Part shown: in pieces, positions 1 through 17,206 of the stretch
How the letters are laid out: the number at the start of each line of letters is the position of its first letter
Position numbering within the stretch: position 1 is the stretch's first letter
From: an uncultured Planctomycetaceae bacterium
GTDB taxonomy: Bacteria; Planctomycetota; Planctomycetia; Pirellulales; UBA1268
Direction of reading: 5' to 3'
DNA length: 64,000 bases
Assembly: GCA_903885565.1 (NCBI GenBank)
Contig: CAISJI010000159.1
Span: 10,514-74,513, forward strand
Made by a program: the position numbers and the translations under genes
Notes under the pieces: generated by a model
Database searches by the model: none
Told to the model about the DNA's origin: nothing
The model's input: the letters and a program-made list of their open reading frames with translations, nothing else

Positions 1-3000
1 GGGGATTGGGCCGACCGCTGGGAACGCCCCGACATTGACGGCGACACGCTCGCCTTCCTCCAATACACCAGCGGTTCCACCGGGACGCCCAAGGGGGTGA
101 TGCTCTCACACACCAACCTGCTGCACAATTCCCTGCGGATCATGCAGGCCTTTGAGATCACCCGCTCGCAGACGGGTGTGTTCTGGCTGCCGAGCTTCCA
201 CGACATGGGGCTCATCGGCGGGATCCTGGTGCCGCTGTATGGGGCCCGGTTCAACGTGCTGATGTCGCCGGTGGCCTTCCTGCAGAAGCCGCTGCGCTGG
301 CTGCAGGCGATCTCCAAGTACCGCGCCACGATCAGCGGTGGTCCCAACTTCGCCTATGAACTCTGCGTGCGCAAAATCACGCCGGAGCAGCGCCGGGGGC
401 TCGATCTCTCCAGCTGGACGCTCGCCTTCAATGGCGCCGAGCCGGTGCGCCCAGAAACGATCGACGCCTTCTGCGAGGCCTTCGAACCCTGCGGCTTCCG
501 TCGCGAGGCCTTCTTCCCCTGCTACGGCCTCGCCGAGAGCACGCTCATGGTCACCGGCGGCATGAAATTCGAGGCGCCTGTGGTGCGGGCCTTCGATGCA
601 GCCGCCGTGGAAACCGGCGCTGCCGTTCCGCGCAACGGCTCCACTCCCGGCACGCGGCGGCTCGTCGGCAGCGGTCGCGAACTCGATGGGCAGGACGTGC
701 GGATTGTCGATCCGCAGTCGTGCGAGGCCCTCCCGCCGGGGATGATCGGCGAGATCTGGGTGAGCGGTCCGAGCGTCGCCCAAGGCTACTGGAACCGGCC
801 CACCGAGACGGCCGCCACGTTTGGCGCGATGCTCTCCAGGCCCGATGCCGGCTCGGCCACGCAGTCGCTGAAAACCTGGCAGCCCAATCCCGGGCCCTAC
901 CTGCGCACCGGGGATCTCGGCTTCTTCGACAATGGCGAACTCTTCGTGACCGGGCGGCTCAAGGATCTGATCATCGTCCGCGGACGCAACCACTATCCGC
1001 AGGATCTGGAGCACTCGGTCGAATCGGCCAGCCCCACGGTCCGGGCTGGCTCTGTGGCGGCTTTCTCCGTCGACGTGGATGGCCGCGAGCGGGTGGTGGT
1101 GGTGGCGGAGGTGGAGCGCGGCAAGCGGGAAGCGGATGAGGTCGCCGCCTCGTTTGACCAGATCCGTCGGCAACTGGCGATCGAGCATGAGATTGCTCTT
1201 GAGGCGATCGTGCTGGTGCGGCCCAACAGCATCCCCAAAACATCCAGTGGCAAGATTCAGCGCCACGCCTGCAAGCGAAAATTCCTCGACAGCACGCTGG
1301 AGGTGGTGGAACAGCAGATCGGCTGGTTGGCCCCCGCCGCCACCACGGCCCCCGCTGCTGCCAGCCCTGCCGGCACCCCCTCCCGACCGAGCGATGCCAC
1401 GCCGCGACTGGCCCGCCTGCGCCCCGTGGGGGAAACCAGCCGTGGCCTGCGTCCCGATCGCGATCTGCCCCCTGAGATCGTGGAGACGGTCTTCGAGCAT
1501 GTGCGGCGGATCGCCAAGGAGCGGGCCGGCAATCTGACGCTTGATTCCAATATCGTGGAACTCGGCCTCGATTCGCTGGAGCGGATGGAGATCGTGGCGA
1601 ATCTCGAGGAGGCCTTCGGCGGCCGGTTTCCCGAGCAGGTGCTGCCGCAGATCGAAACCTGCCGCGAGGTGACCGAGGCAATCCTCGACCACATGCCGAA
1701 TCAGGCCCGCAGCCAGCCGGGTGCGTCCACGCCACCCGCCGCCGCGACCAGCGGCGAACCGTCGCGGGAAACCTGGGACATCAGCCAGTTTCCCGAGGTG
1801 CGAGCGCTGGAACAGAATTTCGCGATGGTGCGGGACGCCGGGCTCGAAGACCCCTACTTCGGCATCCACGAGGGCCTCACCAACGACCGCACGCAGATCG
1901 GCGGGCGGGAGATGATCAGCTGGGCCACCTACAACTACCTCGGTATGTCAGGGGAGCCGGAGGTAACGGCCGCCGCCAAGGCGGCGCTTGATCGCTACGG
2001 CTCCAGCGTGTCGGCCAGTCGGCTGGTTTCGGGAGAGAAGGTTATCCACCGTGAACTGGAGCAGGCGATCTCCCGCTTTGTCGGCACCGAAGACTGCATC
2101 ACGTTCGTGGGCGGCCATGCCACCAATGAAACCGTGATCGGGCATGTGGTCGGCCCGGGAGACCTCGTGCTGCACGATGCCCTGGCCCACAACAGCCTCC
2201 TGCAGGGCGCGGTGCTCTCCGGAGCCCGGCGCCGCCCCTTCCCCCACAACGACTTCGAGGCAGCCGAGGAGCTGCTCCGGCAGGTGCGCGGCCAATACAG
2301 GCGCGTGTTGATCGTGGTGGAGGGCATCTACAGCATGGACGGCGACCACTCCGATCTGCCCCGCTTCGTCGCCCTGGCCAAGCGGCACAAGGCGCTGCTG
2401 ATGGTCGATGAGGCCCACTCGATCGGCGTGATGGGGCCGCGGGGCCGAGGGATTGGCGAGCATTACGGCGTGGCGCCGACTGATGTCGATCTCTGGATGG
2501 GAACCCTTTCCAAGGCACTCGGCAGCTGCGGCGGCTACATCGCCGGCTCTCGGACGCTCGTCCGCTGGCTCAAGTACACCGTGCCGGGCTTTGTCTACAG
2601 CGTGGGGCTGCCGCCGGCTGCGGCGGGAGCAGCTCTCGGAGCCCTGCGGATGCTGGAACGCCAGCCGGAGCGGGTCGCCAAGCTGCTCTCCAATGCGAAG
2701 CTCTTTCTGCAATTGGCCAACGAATCGGGGTTTGACACCGGCTCGTCGGGGGGCTCGGCGATCGTGCCGGTGATCCTCGGCAACTCCCTCAACAGCCTGC
2801 GGCTCTCACGGGCGATGTTTGCCCGCGGCATCAGCGTGCAGCCGATCCTCTACCCTGCGGTGGAGGAGCGGGCCACCCGCCTGCGGTTCTTCATCACCTC
2901 GCGTCACACCCCCGATCAGATCCGCCGCACGATCTCGATCATGCGGGAGGAGCTGTCGCGGATCGATCCCGCCTTTGCCCGCAAGACGCTGCCGCTGCGG

Positions 3001-3024
3001 CCTGCCGCGGCCTCGGGGTGGTGA
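1..3024 (+). CDS. Tridomain fusion of fatty acyl-AMP ligase (FAAL), acyl carrier protein and alpha-oxoamine synthase (AONS/KBL/SPT-family PLP enzyme); the 5' end lies outside the window
   Basis: Frame 1 is open from nt 1. Translation gives LQYTSGSTGTPKGVMLSH (adenylation P-loop), then WLPSFHDMGLIGG, YLRTGDLGF and SSGKIQR. ELGLDSLERMEIV (nt ~1561-1596) is a phosphopantetheine DSL site. The C-terminal ~400 aa carry AONS-type motifs HDALAHNS, MVDEAHS and the PLP-lysine motif GTLSKALG (Lys codon 2512-2514). Stop TGA 3022-3024. Confidence 0.85.
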   Translation, partial: GDWADRWERPDIDGDTLAFLQYTSGSTGTPKGVMLSHTNLLHNSLRIMQAFEITRSQTGVFWLPSFHDMGLIGGILVPLYGARFNVLMSPVAFLQKPLRWLQAISKYRATISGGPNFAYELCVRKITPEQRRGLDLSSWTLAFNGAEPVRPETIDAFCEAFEPCGFRREAFFPCYGLAESTLMVTGGMKFEAPVVRAFDAAAVETGAAVPRNGSTPGTRRLVGSGRELDGQDVRIVDPQSCEALPPGMIGEIWVSGPSVAQGYWNRPTETAATFGAMLSRPDAGSATQSLKTWQPNPGPYLRTGDLGFFDNGELFVTGRLKDLIIVRGRNHYPQDLEHSVESASPTVRAGSVAAFSVDVDGRERVVVVAEVERGKREADEVAASFDQIRRQLAIEHEIALEAIVLVRPNSIPKTSSGKIQRHACKRKFLDSTLEVVEQQIGWLAPAATTAPAAASPAGTPSRPSDATPRLARLRPVGETSRGLRPDRDLPPEIVETVFEHVRRIAKERAGNLTLDSNIVELGLDSLERMEIVANLEEAFGGRFPEQVLPQIETCREVTEAILDHMPNQARSQPGASTPPAAATSGEPSRETWDISQFPEVRALEQNFAMVRDAGLEDPYFGIHEGLTNDRTQIGGREMISWATYNYLGMSGEPEVTAAAKAALDRYGSSVSASRLVSGEKVIHRELEQAISRFVGTEDCITFVGGHATNETVIGHVVGPGDLVLHDALAHNSLLQGAVLSGARRRPFPHNDFEAAEELLRQVRGQYRRVLIVVEGIYSMDGDHSDLPRFVALAKRHKALLMVDEAHSIGVMGPRGRGIGEHYGVAPTDVDLWMGTLSKALGSCGGYIAGSRTLVRWLKYTVPGFVYSVGLPPAAAGAALGALRMLERQPERVAKLLSNAKLFLQLANESGFDTGSSGGSAIVPVILGNSLNSLRLSRAMFARGISVQPILYPAVEERATRLRFFITSRHTPDQIRRTISIMREELSRIDPAFARKTLPLRPAAASGW

Positions 3025-3033
3025 GGCGACGGG

Positions 3034-3049
3034 AGTCTGCTAGCAGACT
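3034..3049. promoter_or_regulatory. Perfect 16-bp palindrome AGTCTGCTAGCAGACT, 9 nt after the fusion-gene stop (operator-like site or short hairpin)
   Basis: Read directly: the 16-mer equals its own reverse complement. A second inverted repeat, gcatcgc-cggat-gcgatgc (7-bp stem, 5-nt loop), lies at 3064-3082. Function is not established. Confidence 0.3.
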
Positions 3050-3176
3050 GTGGATAAAGTGCCGCATCGCCGGATGCGATGCCCGTCGCCCCAGGGGAAC
3101 CCTCGGCGTTTCCTCCGGTCGAAGCCGTCGAAAAAGGCGATGGATGGCTTTTTCCACGGACAGCTAGAATGCCGGC

Positions 3177-3662
3177 ATGCCAGCCCCATTTGAAACGCTC
3201 AGCCACCGGCTCGTGCTGCCGGCCGATGCCAACCACCACGGCACGCTCTATGCCGGCAGTTTGCTGCGGTATTGCCTCGAGGCGGCCTATGCCGCCGGCT
3301 GCCGGGGCGTGGGCCCACAGGCCAACCTGATGCTCAGACGCGTGCTGGGGCTGGAGTGCCGCCGCAGCGTGCCAGTGGGAACGCTGGTGGAGATGCGGGG
3401 GGCGGTGCTGCAGGTGCGGCAGTGCTACCTGACGGTGGGCGTGGTGGGGATGCCCCTGCCCGGCCACACGCTCCCCTGGATGGACGGCCTGCTCGGCTTC
3501 GTGCAGGTCGACGCCGAGGGGCTGCCGGCTTGCTTGCCGGAGGAGATCCAGATTCTGCCGGCCACACCGCTGTGGCAACCGCTTGCGGCCCGGCTGGAGA
3601 AGCTCTCGCAGACCAAGGGAGCCACCGCCGACTGGATCGACGCCGGCTTCGACCGCGACTGA
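3177..3662 (+). CDS. Hotdog-fold acyl-CoA/acyl-ACP thioesterase-like protein
   Basis: 161-aa ORF with ATG 3177 and TGA 3660-3662. The N-terminal LVLPADANHHGTLYAGSLL resembles the YciA/4HBT-type thioesterase motif. Coding-like GC3. Family call is from motif memory only. Confidence 0.55.
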   Translation: MPAPFETLSHRLVLPADANHHGTLYAGSLLRYCLEAAYAAGCRGVGPQANLMLRRVLGLECRRSVPVGTLVEMRGAVLQVRQCYLTVGVVGMPLPGHTLPWMDGLLGFVQVDAEGLPACLPEEIQILPATPLWQPLAARLEKLSQTKGATADWIDAGFDRD

Positions 3663-3801: not shown

Positions 3802-5691
3802 TTAATATTTGACTTCGATGCCGAAGTCGAGGCCGTTGGAGAGGACGTAGTTCTGTACCGAGGTCGGAGCGGCACCGATCCGGCTGTAGCGGACAGGCAC
3901 TTCCTGCACGGTGGTGCGTGTGTTGTCGACCGGGGCCGAGGGATCGTTGGCACCAACGATGATCGGTTGGCCGTTGGAATCAAGCACCGGAGCACCGGAA
4001 CCGTTGGTCAGCACGACCCCCGGATTGTAGGCAGGATTCGCCACGCTCTGCCGGACCAGATCGACCTTCGAGAGAAAGGCTGTATTGGTGCTGGCCCGGG
4101 CGATCTGCCCCATCCACATGCCGGTGTAACCGGCGTGCAGCATGATCCCCTGACTGACGCGAAACTGCGTGCCGAGCCGCCATTCGCCGATCGGGGTGAA
4201 TGTGAAGTTGTGCTCTGCGGAATTGGTGGCGTTGCGCGAGCCCACACCGTAGATCTGGATCAGCAGTGGATCCCCCTGGATGTTGGCCGTCTGCTGGCCA
4301 CCGGTCAGACCGCTCGACTGGGTGACGACATTCGCCGTGGTGAACGTCGTGCGGAAGTAGTCAGCGGCGAGCGAATCGGGGAAGTTGCTGCCACGGTAGA
4401 TGTTGTTCTGCCAGTTGAGACCCGCAGTGAACTTGAGATCTGAGGAAACCGTCCACCGCCCCTTGGTGCTCGACATGTTGATCGAAAATTCCGGTCCCAC
4501 CATGTTGTTGCTGGTATAGGTTTCCCAGGCTCCGTTTTGCAGCGGACTCCCCAGGCCCCGCGCCGAAGCATCGGCCTGAGCCTGAAGGCGGGCTAGAGAA
4601 TCGGCATCTGACAGGAGCGAACCGCTGCCGAAGCCGCCACCGGTGCCGCCAGTGGTGCCGCCGCCGATGCCGCCAGTCGTGCCGCCGGCTGTGCCACCGG
4701 TCGTACCGCCAGTTCCACCGGTCGTACCGCCGGTTGTGCCTCCTGTCGTACCGCCTGTAGTGCCGCCGGTAGTACCGCCAGTTGTGCCACCGGTTGTGCC
4801 GCCGGTCGTGCCGCCACCGCCACCACCCGTCGTGCCACCCTGGGGAAAGGCGTACTCACGGCTGTTATAGCCGAGGTTATAGCGATCCTCCAGCTGCACG
4901 AAGCGGGGTCCCAGCCCGAATTTGACGTTGGAGTTGGAGCCGGCATGCCGCAGCTGGCGCTGGATGAGAGCCGCCACGCCACCGCTCTGGATCCGCGTCG
5001 AATTCGTCTGCGTGAACCTCTGGCTGATCATGTGATCGGGAGGGGGGCTGGTTGTCGTGATCGTGGATGTTGTCTGGGGCAGCGAAAAGAGATTGGAGTT
5101 GCCGGTGGTGCCGCCGGAGGTGGAACCGCCGGAACCTGCCTCCCCCTGAGTGAACGTCTGGGCTGGCGTGTTGATGGCAAATTCGCTCGTCGTCTGAAAG
5201 CTCTGCGACTGCGGGCCGCTGTCGAGGTAGGAAAACATCACGCCGTTGTTGTCGTAGATCCAGCCGCCCTCAAATCGATTTCCCCACGACATTCGCGTTC
5301 GCATCCAGCTGGTGTCGAGCGAGAGGTTGAGCTGGTCGCTGCCGTAGATGATCACGCCGGAACTGGCCCCGCTGGCGTTGTTGAGCTGCTGGGCCACATC
5401 CGGATTGAGCGGCTCGACCGGGAAGAACTGCCTGTTCCCCACCGCCGTCACACGCGGCACGGTGATGCCCCAAATGAGACGGTCGTAGTTGAAGAACATC
5501 CCCTCGTCGGCCTCCGGCCAGATCTCATATTCCTGCAGATCGGGGGGGGCGAACAGCTGGAAATCGTACATATCTTGATCGGGCAGCAGCGGCATCCAGT
5601 CGCCGGCCTGAACCGGCAAAACCGGGGCCAGAAGCGCCGCCAGCGTGCTGATGATTCCCGAAACGCGTTTGACACCGGAGTGTGTAGCCAT
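3802..5691 (-). CDS. Secreted outer-membrane beta-barrel-like protein with an internal (GGTT)n tract (possibly a BBP7/DUF1551-type planctomycetal barrel)
   Basis: Start moved to ATG 5691 (cat at 5689-5691), giving MATHSGVKRVSGIISTLAALLAPVLPVQAGDW, a signal-peptide-like N-terminus. The 148 upstream residues of the track ORF are Arg/Pro/Ser junk. The body has alternating beta-strand-like segments rich in Y/N/G/T/S. The C-terminus ends GLDFGIEVKY, and a terminal aromatic is typical of OM barrels. Confidence 0.6.
   Translation of the reverse strand: MATHSGVKRVSGIISTLAALLAPVLPVQAGDWMPLLPDQDMYDFQLFAPPDLQEYEIWPEADEGMFFNYDRLIWGITVPRVTAVGNRQFFPVEPLNPDVAQQLNNASGASSGVIIYGSDQLNLSLDTSWMRTRMSWGNRFEGGWIYDNNGVMFSYLDSGPQSQSFQTTSEFAINTPAQTFTQGEAGSGGSTSGGTTGNSNLFSLPQTTSTITTTSPPPDHMISQRFTQTNSTRIQSGGVAALIQRQLRHAGSNSNVKFGLGPRFVQLEDRYNLGYNSREYAFPQGGTTGGGGGGTTGGTTGGTTGGTTGGTTGGTTGGTTGGTTGGTGGTTGGTAGGTTGGIGGGTTGGTGGGFGSGSLLSDADSLARLQAQADASARGLGSPLQNGAWETYTSNNMVGPEFSINMSSTKGRWTVSSDLKFTAGLNWQNNIYRGSNFPDSLAADYFRTTFTTANVVTQSSGLTGGQQTANIQGDPLLIQIYGVGSRNATNSAEHNFTFTPIGEWRLGTQFRVSQGIMLHAGYTGMWMGQIARASTNTAFLSKVDLVRQSVANPAYNPGVVLTNGSGAPVLDSNGQPIIVGANDPSAPVDNTRTTVQEVPVRYSRIGAAPTSVQNYVLSNGLDFGIEVKY
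4625..4842 (-). repeat. About 18 imperfect tandem 12-nt units (plus strand gccgccggttgt-like) encoding (Gly-Gly-Thr-Thr)n inside the barrel gene
   Basis: Read directly at 4621-4850. The protein reads GGTTGGGGGGTTGGTTGGTTGGTTGGTTGGTTGGTTGGTTGGTGGTTGGTAGGTTGGIGGGTTGGTGGGFGSGS. Units differ mostly at synonymous positions. Confidence 0.85.
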
Positions 5692-5950
5692 CGCTATGTG
5701 TCCTGGGGAGCAGGAGCCGTCTGTTCCGCCGATGCGGATTGCTCCTGAGGTATCGGTCATGCCGGTCGATGGAGTTGACGAATCTTGGTTGACTCTTCCG
5801 AACAGGCGGATGATTCGGCATGCACCGGCAGAAAACGGCGAAAAAGTGGCAGTTTCGGCAGCTTCGGGTATTCTGCAGAGAGCCTGCCGGGAATCGGTCG
5901 CCCGCTCGGGGGCGGCAGAATCCAAGCCGCGGCAGCCGGGAGAGGTGAAG

Positions 5951-6916
5951 ATGGGAAATGTGCCCTGTTCAGGCCGTCTGGCCAGCCGCGTCGTCGGTTT
6001 CACGTTGCTTCTGGGCCTGAGCTGGGGAGCCGTGCTCCCGGCTGGCGGGCCTGTCTGCCGGGCCGAAGAGCCCCGGCCGGTCGCCCCAAAGGGGGCCGAT
6101 CCGGTCGCCTTCTTGCGGGTTTCCCGCGACGCCAACGGGGAACCAGAGGCTCTGGAGACCTCGGTCGTGCGCTATTGTGAAACGGCCGAGGCCGCAGCGG
6201 CCGCCGGGCGCCGCACCCCGCTGGAAGTTGATCTCGTGGGAGCGGTGCATGTCGGGAGCAAATCCTATTACGACACGCTCGACCACCTCTTTCGCGACTA
6301 CGACAGCGTGCTTTATGAACTCGTCGCCCCCGACAACGCCCGGGTGCCGAAGCCGGGCCGCAAGGCCAGCGGGGCGATCGGCTCCGCCCAACAGGGAATG
6401 ACGCAGATGCTCGGCCTGGAGCACCAACTCGAGCAGATCGACTACACGGCGCGGAATTTCGTCCATGCCGATATGTCGCCCAAGGAATTCGATGCCGCCA
6501 TGGCCAAGCGGGGCGAATCGTGGTGGAGCATGTTCACGAAGCTGATGCGGGAAAATATGGCCCGCGCCGAACGCGGCCAGGGGCAGGCCGGGGAGGTTGG
6601 CTTCAGCGATCTGTTTGGGATTTTCTTCGGGCAGGACCGGCCGGTGCGGCTGCGGCGGATCATGGCGGAGCAGTTCACCGACATGGAGATCCTCACGGCC
6701 GCCTTTGGCGGCGAGGAGGGCTCATCGCTGATCACCGATCGCAACGGCGCGGCGGCCGAAGTGCTGGCAGACCAGATCAAGGCGGGCCGGCGCAAAGTCG
6801 CCATCTTTTACGGGGCGGCCCACATGGACGATTTCGATCGCCGGCTGCGCGCGGATTTCCAGCTGGAGCCGGTGGAAACGACCTGGGTCGAGGCCTGGGA
6901 CCTGCGGATGCGGTAA
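5951..6916 (+). CDS. TraB/GumN family protein with an N-terminal signal peptide
   Basis: ATG at 5951 gives MGNVPCSGRLASRVVGFTLLLGLSWGAVLPAGG. VDLVGAVHVGSKSYYDTLDHLFRDYDSVLYELV and ITDRNGAAAEVLADQIKAGRRKVAIFYGAAHM match the two conserved TraB/GumN blocks as I recall them. TAA 6914-6916. Confidence 0.65.
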   Translation: MGNVPCSGRLASRVVGFTLLLGLSWGAVLPAGGPVCRAEEPRPVAPKGADPVAFLRVSRDANGEPEALETSVVRYCETAEAAAAAGRRTPLEVDLVGAVHVGSKSYYDTLDHLFRDYDSVLYELVAPDNARVPKPGRKASGAIGSAQQGMTQMLGLEHQLEQIDYTARNFVHADMSPKEFDAAMAKRGESWWSMFTKLMRENMARAERGQGQAGEVGFSDLFGIFFGQDRPVRLRRIMAEQFTDMEILTAAFGGEEGSSLITDRNGAAAEVLADQIKAGRRKVAIFYGAAHMDDFDRRLRADFQLEPVETTWVEAWDLRMR

Positions 6917-16123: not shown

Positions 16124-17206
16124 ATGAAATCTCTTTCGGAATGTTCCGCCCCCGTGTCGGTTGAGCCAGGTTGTGTCGCCGGGGCAAGCGGCTGGTCTCC
16201 CGGAGACTGGCACAGCCTCGCGGAGCGGGTGCTCGCTGGCGGCAGGATCACGCGCGAGGAGGCGCGGGCGGTTTTGGCGTCTGGAGACGAGGAACTGCTC
16301 GACGTCCTCGCCGCGGCGTACCGCATCCGCCGCCAGGCGTTCGGCAACACCGTGCAGCTGTTCTTCCTGATGAATGCCAAGAGCGGGCTCTGCCCGGAGG
16401 ATTGCGGCTACTGCTCCCAGTCGAAAGTTTCCGACGCTGCCATTCCCCGGTACAACCTGCTCTCGGCTCCGAAGCTGCTTGAGGCAGCCCGCATCGCCGC
16501 CGAGCGCCAGTCGAAGACATTTTGCATCGTCATCTCGGCCCGCGGCCCGACGGAACGCGAGATGGATGCCGTCTGCAGCATCGTGCCGGAGATCAAAGCG
16601 AAGTTTGATCTCAACATCTGCGCCTGCCTGGGGCTGCTCACACCCGACCAGGCAAGCCGGCTGGCCGCCGCCGGGGTCGACAAGGTGAATCACAACCTCA
16701 ACACCAGCGCCCGCTTCTATCCTGAAATCTGCTCGACGCACACCTACGAAGACAGGCTTTCCACCCTGTCCGCCTGCCGCTCGGCCGGCTTGCAGTTATG
16801 CAGCGGCGGGATCATGGGAATGGGGGAAACCCACGAAGACCTGATCGACATGGCTGAGGAATTGCGCGATCTGCGGGTGGAATCGATCCCCCTCAACTTT
16901 CTCAATGCCATCGATGGCACGCCACTGCAAACCACCAACCGCCTCAACCCCCGCGACTGCCTGCGGGCCCTGGCGATGATGCGGCTGATGAATCCAGCCG
17001 CGGAGATTCGCATCGCCGGTGGACGGGAGCTCCACCTCGGGAGCCTGCAGGCCCTGGGGCTCTATGCCGCCAACTCCATGTTCGTCGGCGATTACCTGAC
17101 CACCCAGGGCCAGCTCCCTGAAGCCGATTACAAGATGATCGAGGATCTGGGATTTGTGATCACCCGCGGACAGGAAGCGGCCGAGCCTCCTGCCGCTTGC
17201 ACCTGA
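16124..17206 (+). CDS. bioB: Biotin synthase (radical SAM)
   Basis: CPEDCGYCSQS is the CxxxCxxC radical-SAM cluster motif in the BioB context. Length and downstream blocks (NHNLNTS, GGIMGMGE) fit BioB. ATG 16124, TGA 17204-17206. Confidence 0.9.
   Translation: MKSLSECSAPVSVEPGCVAGASGWSPGDWHSLAERVLAGGRITREEARAVLASGDEELLDVLAAAYRIRRQAFGNTVQLFFLMNAKSGLCPEDCGYCSQSKVSDAAIPRYNLLSAPKLLEAARIAAERQSKTFCIVISARGPTEREMDAVCSIVPEIKAKFDLNICACLGLLTPDQASRLAAAGVDKVNHNLNTSARFYPEICSTHTYEDRLSTLSACRSAGLQLCSGGIMGMGETHEDLIDMAEELRDLRVESIPLNFLNAIDGTPLQTTNRLNPRDCLRALAMMRLMNPAAEIRIAGGRELHLGSLQALGLYAANSMFVGDYLTTQGQLPEADYKMIEDLGFVITRGQEAAEPPAACT

Follow-up and report, generated by a model that had tools for sequence, protein, structure and literature searches.

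The window analysed here is a stretch of 64,000 nucleotides from the genome of an uncultured planctomycete of the order Pirellulales (C159:10514-74513 on contig CAISJI010000159.1; genome of 4.46 Mb in 279 contigs). It opens within a gene whose product joins a fatty acyl-AMP ligase (FAAL), an acyl carrier protein (ACP) domain and a pyridoxal phosphate (PLP)-dependent alpha-oxoamine synthase (AOS) on one chain, and the catalytic residues of this fusion protein are all intact. We consider it fairly probable that the protein is a single-polypeptide long-chain-base synthase, which would stand at the start of the synthesis of a ceramide-like lipid. Its amino acid substrate is probably L-serine, as favoured by the affinity of the PLP domain to LCB2, a subunit of the eukaryotic serine palmitoyltransferase (SPT). 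Among the products which an earlier note on this DNA had considered, the genomic context points to the sphingoid or ceramide option, with the chemistry predicted from that of the enzyme families.

Domain composition of the fusion protein

The earlier note had placed the upstream context outside the window. The gene is indeed cut by the window edge, and the open reading frame (ORF) in the window is open at its 5' end; however, the contig continues and the upstream sequence is present. The complete ORF (C159:10052-13537) has a GTG start, is uninterrupted and encodes 1161 amino acids. Of its 3486 nt the window holds the 3' 3024, whereas the first 462 nt precede it on the contig. The features of the fusion gene in the window are:

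1 to 3024, + strand: FAAL-ACP-alpha-oxoamine synthase fusion gene, 3' part (ORF call, Pfam, NCBIfam)
1 to 1311, + strand: fatty acyl-AMP ligase domain, residues 155-591 of the 1161-aa protein (Pfam, NCBIfam and PDB matches)
1489 to 1683, + strand: carrier (phosphopantetheine-binding) domain (Pfam PP-binding; Ser679 in GLDSL)
1798 to 2976, + strand: PLP-dependent alpha-oxoamine synthase (SPT-like) domain (Pfam Aminotran_1_2; Lys992 in GTLSKALG)

In the window part of the protein Pfam finds, in this order, AMP-binding (E-value 4e-45), AMP-dom_DIP2-like, which is the C-terminal AMP subdomain (1e-12), PP-binding (3.5e-9) and Aminotran_1_2 (6e-47). The best NCBIfam matches of the adenylating domain are FAAL models with 340-391 bits, which is below their full-length cut-offs, the protein scanned being truncated. 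Its top PDB matches are FAALs as well: 7r7e (607 bits), the Legionella FAAL 3kxw (471 bits) and FadD32 (374 bits), with FadD23, FadD28 and the E. coli FAAL 3pbk also among them. The FAAL-specific insertion region is present, since the PDB alignment spans residues 340-395 without a large gap. We looked for five core motifs of the ANL enzymes (A3 YTSGSTGxPKG, A5 YGxxE, A7 TGDLG, A8 GRxKDxIIxxGxN, A10 PKTxSGKIxR) and found all of them, as YTSGSTGTPKG, YGLAEST, TGDLG, GRLKDLIIVRGRN and PKTSSGKIQR, respectively.

The carrier domain scores 37.2 bits against Pfam PP-binding (PF00550; cut-off 20.8), and its attachment serine, within the (D/G)xDS(L/I) motif, is Ser679 (codon at 1573-1575). The PLP lysine is Lys992 (codon at 2512-2514). 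The FAAL-type adenylating domain, the intact carrier site and the AONS/SPT-family PLP domain with its catalytic lysine, all of which had been read from the letters alone, are thus borne out by these matches.

A loss of essential residues in the PLP domain had been named as a possible weakness, and we checked this in an alignment with S. paucimobilis SPT (SpSPT), E. coli B Spt, LCB2a, Kbl, Thermus AOS (ThAOS) and BioF. The equivalents of SpSPT His159, Asp231, His234, Thr262, Ser264, Lys265 and Arg390 are all kept, and the same is true for all fusion relatives aligned. Conserved among them are the Schiff-base lysine, the His that stacks on PLP, the Asp and His that contact the pyridine N and O3', and the Arg for carboxylate binding. 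The alignment also revealed a signature of the fusion family, GGHATN, at a place where SPT, KBL and AONS have an aromatic residue.

Comparison with the AasR/AcpR/Spt system

In Caulobacter crescentus, E. coli B and Sphingomonas a tripartite system exists together with 'epi' (CerR) and 'aca' (YghO, bCerS) (PMC9386255). Its three proteins AasR, AcpR and Spt make 3-oxo-sphinganine (PMC9386255). AasR charges no carrier other than AcpR, and Spt prefers acyl-AcpR as its substrate (Padilla-Gomez et al. 2022, PMC9386255). yghO is a homologue of the 'aca' N-acyltransferase gene, which is needed for dihydroceramide biosynthesis (PMC9386255). The cluster of E. coli BL21(DE3) comprises the divergent yghO, the FAAL-annotated AasR gene, an NAD-dependent epimerase ('epi'/CerR), the ACP (AcpR) and spt. 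AasR of E. coli B is annotated as a fatty acyl-AMP ligase by PGAP and scores 870 bits to NF006624.

The fusion protein matches AasR (32%, 5e-75), AcpR (31%, 2e-5) and Spt (34%, 4e-55) in a colinear manner, and thus has the three-part logic of this system on one chain. The same three activities occur in the same order, and homologues of YghO and of a short-chain dehydrogenase/reductase (SDR) are linked to the fusion in relatives. There are differences, too. The known system consists of three proteins whereas the fusion is one polypeptide of 1161 amino acids, with identities of only 31-34%. The PLP domain lies outside the proteobacterial Spt clade, with 273 bits on the SPT model compared to 599 bits for E. 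coli B Spt, and the putative reductase associated with the fusion is of an HpnA-like SDR lineage, unlike CerR.

Affinities of the PLP domain

Among the top PDB matches of the PLP domain are Arabidopsis LCB2a (227 bits) and human SPTLC2 (215 bits). LCB2a matches no bacterial protein in the PDB with more than 213 bits. These scores are consistent with the placement of the domain in a maximum likelihood tree (LG+C20) of 19 sequences. Besides ten members of the fusion family, including the AOS of a split version from Nostoc and a FAAL-less paralogue from contig C200 (both described below), this tree held a BioF-like protein encoded on contig C230 of the same genome, E. coli BioF, E. coli Kbl, E. 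coli B Spt, SpSPT, ThAOS, Arabidopsis LCB2a, human SPTLC2 and yeast Lcb2; its sampling extended neither to SPTs of Bacteroidota or Myxococcota nor to ALAS, CqsA or cysteate acyltransferase. The fusion family appeared as sister to eukaryotic LCB2/SPTLC2 with a support of 98/96, apart from the remaining six sequences. A constraint that joined the proteobacterial SPTs with LCB2 was marginally rejected (p-AU 0.035). The motif around the catalytic lysine is also very similar, GTLSKALGSCGGYIAGS in the fusion and GTFTKSFGSCGGYIAGS in Arabidopsis LCB2a. The eukaryotic SPT differs in that it forms a heterodimer with LCB1 in the membrane, takes acyl-CoA as substrate and has neither a FAAL nor a carrier domain. 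A homologue search with the PLP domain by itself returned almost exclusively fragments of the same fusions with generic names when named stand-alone relatives were sought.

No curated equivalog was reached by the PLP domain among the NCBIfam models for bioF, Kbl, SPT (three models) and CqsA. The best-scoring one was bioF (TIGR00858) with 346 bits at a cut-off of 426.45, followed by Kbl with 300 bits (cut-off 460); CqsA gave 149 bits (cut-off 428). The top rank of the bioF model raises the question whether the fusion could be the organism's BioF, joined to a pimelate-activating ligase and a carrier for biotin synthesis. A bioB homologue on the same contig could be taken in the same sense; it is located at 16286-17155 (+ strand) of the window, ~13 kb 3' of the fusion and just before leuC, and is 39% identical to E. 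coli BioB over 295 aa. However, the stretch from the fusion to bioB is filled by unrelated genes, and bioA, bioD and the BioF-like gene are found on contigs C148, C248 and C230. Upstream of the fusion we found an AAA/VWA pair, a sulfatase, an EEP nuclease, enolase, riboflavin synthase and ksgA, and no bio genes. Of the three AOS paralogues in the genome, the one on C230 scores 416 bits on the bioF model and groups with E. coli BioF, and the 98/96 branch separates the PLP domain of the fusion from BioF. The adenylating domain, for its part, is nearest to long-chain FAALs. We give a role as BioF virtually no credence and rejected it on the score below cut-off, the better paralogue on C230, the absence of flanking bio genes and the 98/96 branch. 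A clustering with BioF, which had been raised as a possible objection, was seen neither in the tree nor in the model scores.

More weight is due to the possibility that the enzyme works by the same logic with another amino acid, such as alanine, glycine, cysteate or a further one, and yields a 1-deoxy-sphingoid, a capnine-like or a non-canonical base. The PLP domain stayed below the cut-off of all three SPT equivalogs (NF047599, NF047600, NF047603), and it has its own GGHATN signature in place of the aromatic residue. In the PDB comparison, the broad-specificity Thermus AOS (235 bits) and KBL (220 bits) are as similar to it as the SPTs, and cysteate-C-fatty acyltransferase also reaches 186 bits. 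Against this stands the grouping with LCB2/SPTLC2, which use serine. In addition, the position of SpSPT Ser102 is occupied by Ser as in SPTs, and by Val in Kbl and ThAOS, which would speak for serine, although the role of this residue is not established. On these grounds we regard a substrate other than serine as unlikely, if a serious contender, and L-serine remains the probable one.

Apart from the fusion itself, the genome encodes a paralogue at C200:702-2453, which comprises the carrier and AOS part without FAAL and is 45% identical over residues 664-1135. Its contig measures 2.7 kb and carries an aconitase fragment ahead of it; in the tree the paralogue falls inside the fusion family. Its carrier-like region has GIDKN instead of GLDSL; since the attachment serine is replaced, this carrier domain is probably dead.

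Genes linked to the fusion

The fusion, YghO-like genes and an SDR gene are tied pairwise by direct adjacency across families, and the genome studied here holds all three. Its YghO homologue, encoded at C209:39031-40200, shares 36.6% of 374 aligned aa with E. coli YghO (2.5e-80). Adjoining it in divergent orientation is an extended SDR (C209:40335-41513; both genes together C209:39031-41513, locus L087). The earlier note had called the fusion and the gene following it a self-contained module. This description holds for the first step only, the likely partner genes being on another contig.

The pairwise links were seen as follows. Firstly, the YghO homologue and the SDR are divergent and adjacent not only in this genome but also in its 7/7 sampled family relatives and in seven further genomes of other families. 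Secondly, orthologues of this SDR (P0125-type) adjoin the fusion in convergent orientation in 7/7 sampled genomes of another family (f103), which we verified on three loci (L111-L113). Thirdly, a second clade of YghO-like proteins, 35-40% identical to the first, adjoins the fusion in six genomes of other families (G232, G235, G244, G262, G285, G319), as well as in the Pirellulales metagenome-assembled genome (MAG) L083 and the Syntrophobacteraceae MAG L054. In the latter the fusion has a CerR homologue (30%, 1e-36) at its side as well. When the genome of the window was searched for CerR by BLAST, the matches were weak, non-specific and spread over many SDR paralogues, and because of this the C209 SDR is a candidate keto-reductase by its gene neighbourhood.

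The link to a YghO/bCerS-type enzyme agrees with ceramide synthesis; N-acylation of other bases would be compatible with it, too.

The L054 locus (L054:1431-7721) deserves mention in its own right. On the 5' side of the fusion it has genes for a YghO-like protein, a CerR-like protein, a short-chain dehydrogenase and a radical SAM/DUF4070 protein with B12-binding domain. The locus is compact and a candidate for a ceramide cluster to which a radical SAM enzyme has been added.

Distribution of the fusion

To survey the order, 121 genomes were evenly sampled from it, with E <= 1e-200 as the threshold for the fusion. The fusion was found in 101 of them, corresponding to 87 of the 98 high-quality genomes and 70 of the 82 genera, and it is a single ORF of 1121-1561 aa (open-frame length) in 72 genomes. 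YghO-like genes were present in 107/121 genomes. Both genes occurred together in 98 genomes, only the fusion in 3, only YghO in 9 and neither in 11.

Outside the order the occurrence is patchy. Full-length relatives among metagenome proteins number in the thousands, the best 120 being 81-98% identical. Named records with the fusion include Pirellulales, Thermoguttaceae and Pirellulaceae, and also Nostoc, Scytonema and a Syntrophobacteraceae MAG. Among the cultured strains with the gene are Novipirellula herctigrandis CA13, Rhodopirellula maiorica SM1 and R. sallentina SM41.

The cyanobacterial versions are built differently. Scytonema sp. HK-05 (L079:7959-13085) has a 1708-aa variant in which a complete acyl-CoA dehydrogenase (three ACAD domains) is inserted between FAAL and carrier, which suggests a desaturation of the tethered acyl chain before condensation. 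A Nostoc MAG (L076:7953-14221) has a split version, consisting of a 744-aa FAAL-ACP and a 468-aa AOS, followed by an S-adenosylmethionine (SAM) methyltransferase, a small SMR-like membrane protein and an acyltransferase_3 protein; these genes look like a tailoring cluster.

Fusion genes 50-89% identical to that of the window were also found in public MAG records titled after unrelated taxa, namely Chitinophaga sp. (L028), Alphaproteobacteria (L035) and Nitrosopumilus (L042), and several records titled Candidatus Kuenenia stuttgartiensis likewise carry fusion genes in this range. L035 shows Pirellulales-type synteny. Probably, these oddly titled records are mislabelled or mis-binned contigs.

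The layout of the fusion was catalogued before by Milano et al. 2013 (PMC3870968) as A-CP-PLP2, with '?' for product and cluster type and with Blastopirellula marina A3ZWL3, Microscilla marina A1ZVW4 and Synechococcus PCC 7002 B1XHP8 as examples. It is identical to that of our fusion, and Blastopirellula marina is a cultured planctomycete. The catalogue gives the layout only, without function, distribution or partner genes. That such proteins were listed among assembly lines of the nonribosomal peptide synthetase (NRPS)/polyketide synthase (PKS) type (PMC3870968) could mean that the fusion is a minimal starter module of this kind, and that the alpha-amino ketone acts as a signal or belongs to secondary metabolism instead of the membrane lipids, e. 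g. as a CAI-1-like hydroxyketone or a precursor of pyrazines or pyrroles. The tailoring parts in cyanobacteria, i. e. the Scytonema acyl-CoA dehydrogenase and the Nostoc methyltransferase and acyltransferase_3, would fit this as well. However, the fusion is near-core in the whole order with 50-85% identity over 1150 aa, a pattern more in line with a housekeeping lipid than with an accessory metabolite. At the fusion loci viewed, PKS or NRPS genes are absent from the adjacent positions, the CqsA model is far from its cut-off (see above), and the fusion is linked to YghO, to the SDR and to the gene of an outer-membrane barrel. A metabolite as the product appears quite improbable to us.

Relation to earlier work and weighing of the evidence

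Beyond the tripartite system, a further bacterial route is that of PfSgaAB in Pseudomonas fluorescens MYb115, which yields sphinganines (Peters et al. 2025, PMC12134224). As in the fusion, a carrier-tethered acyl chain is passed to an AOS in the proposed pathway. In contrast to the fusion, in which the FAAL would load a ready-made fatty acid, the chain is built by SgaA, an iterative type I PKS, and SgaB, the AOS, is encoded as a protein of its own.

For 138 Planctomycetota MAGs, the potential for sphingolipid synthesis was deduced in a study of Black Sea MAGs (Ding et al. 2024, PMC11334938), on the basis of Spt homologues ('Spt-like' clade B) co-localised with bCerS and CerR (PMC11334938). The text of this study does not mention 'fusion', 'fused', 'AMP-binding' or 'acyl carrier', and our literature searches returned no report of fusions between a FAAL and an AONS/oxoamine synthase. 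Neither the chemistry nor the tripartite system nor the domain layout is new, and Planctomycetota were flagged earlier as potential producers of sphingolipids (PMC11334938). New in comparison with the literature searched are the fused enzyme as the predicted start of a Pirellulales-wide pathway, the neighbourhood triangle with YghO and the SDR, and the apparent sister relation to LCB2.

Several points weigh against a long-chain-base synthase that starts a ceramide pathway. The scores of the PLP domain on the SPT equivalogs are well below the cut-offs (273.5 bits compared to 500, 289.8 to 640 and 236.1 to 670), whereas the positive control, E. coli B Spt, exceeded its cut-off with 599 bits compared to 500. 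PGAP names the relatives of the fusion merely 'aminotransferase class I/II-fold', and the amino acid substrate is not readable from the sequence. The sister relation to LCB2 is a lead and not a conclusion, as it comes from 19 sequences without SPTs of Bacteroidota and Myxococcota. The best curated match of the SDR is HpnA, a hopanoid-associated epimerase (231 bits; cut-off 368), and its identity to E. coli CerR is only 27% (5e-12). YghO occurs without a detected fusion in 9/121 genomes. The association of the two genes has a Fisher p of 4e-8, a value which ignores phylogeny, with double absences falling in ~5 lineages. Finally, our literature searches turned up no sphingolipids reported for Pirellulales in culture. 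With these points taken into account, we still favour the long-chain-base synthase, at the strength given at the outset.

The 3' neighbourhood of the fusion gene

Downstream of the fusion gene the window contains:

3025 to 3176, no strand: spacer of 152 nt between the fusion gene and the hotdog gene
3177 to 3662, + strand: YciA/ACOT7-type hotdog acyl-CoA thioesterase-like protein, 161 aa (PDB phmmer, predicted fold)
3802 to 6135, - strand: outer-membrane beta-barrel candidate, 777 aa, distantly BBP7-like (homology to the barrel genes of relatives)

In the spacer, a scan for promoters and terminators found no promoter-like site and one terminator-like hairpin (3125-3143), which at 0.5 expected is no more than chance.

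The ORF at 3177-3662 had been taken for a hotdog thioesterase. It has no match in Pfam or NCBIfam; phmmer against the PDB finds the hotdog acyl-CoA hydrolases 2gvh (5e-9) and 1vpm (2e-7). An AlphaFold (AF2) model calculated on an alignment of 17 orthologues (66-80% identical) has a mean confidence (pLDDT) of 75.6. Foldseek relates this model with a probability of 1.0 and a TM score of ~0.58 to 1vpm, 2eis, YciA (3bjk) and the C-domain of ACOT7 (2qq2). D17 and N19 of the PxDxN motif (PADAN) are invariant among the orthologues. The helix Asp of 1vpm (yiDEia), however, aligns with Leu34, the next residue, Glu35, being invariant; because of this Leu34, catalytic activity is not assured. Thus the model and the sequence kinship assign the ORF to the YciA/ACOT7-type hotdog fold, whereas the thioesterase activity is only putative.

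The hotdog gene is directly 3' of the fusion only in a close clade (orthologues at least ~66% identical). This place is a variable slot, which is taken by a YghO-like gene in several families, by the SDR gene in f103 and by the hotdog gene in the family of the window. Where YghO or the SDR occupies it, a small conserved ORF and then a BBP7-like barrel gene on the opposite strand follow; in the family of the window the barrel gene comes directly after the hotdog gene. Across the order, many families have a homologue of the barrel gene after the fusion cluster. The barrel protein of the window, whose gene is convergent with the fusion cluster, contains a long (GGTT)n tract, i. e. a Gly/Thr repeat, and has no match in Pfam. 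Homologues without the repeat in other families match BBP7 (PF07585), for example the one at locus L030.

The small conserved ORF has the core …LLTEQE..SW..LF…RPESPLRHRL..EL.ELR. It lies near the fusion cluster in many Pirellulales families (L103-L108, L111-L113, L035, L049, L066 and others), usually divergent from the YghO-like or SDR gene. The genome of the window has no detectable homologue of it.

Proposed pathway and its significance

From the chemistry of the enzyme families, the following pathway can be proposed. In the first step the FAAL domain would adenylate a free long-chain fatty acid and pass the acyl group to the phosphopantetheine arm on the protein's own Ser679, bypassing acyl-CoA. 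In the second step the PLP domain would condense the tethered acyl chain decarboxylatively with an amino acid, most likely L-serine; the carrier would be freed and a 3-oxo-sphinganine-like alpha-amino ketone released. The third step is suggested by gene association. Here the YghO/bCerS-type N-acyltransferase would N-acylate the product and the SDR on C209 would reduce it, which would lead to a dihydroceramide-like lipid. Speculatively, the hotdog protein could release fatty acids from acyl-CoA or acyl-ACP for the FAAL, or clear a misloaded carrier.

A bolder version would be that Pirellulales as a whole, using a single CoA-independent synthase protein, turn free fatty acids into a ceramide-type envelope lipid that has so far escaped detection, that the condensing domain is the closest bacterial relative of LCB2, and that the BBP7-like barrel and the small ORF join the system, for example in placing the lipid in the outer membrane. 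A role of the barrel is speculative, and taken as a whole we consider this version rather doubtful.

If the long-chain-base synthase is confirmed, a whole order of planctomycetes that are abundant in water and soil would make sphingolipid-type lipids, and the fused enzyme would channel free fatty acids into long-chain-base synthesis without acyl-CoA. One gene would then suffice to test or engineer the production of long-chain bases, and the fusion would be a clean marker for assigning lipid producers in environmental samples. The apparent sister relation to LCB2, for which a properly sampled phylogeny is needed, bears on the origin of eukaryotic sphingolipid synthesis.

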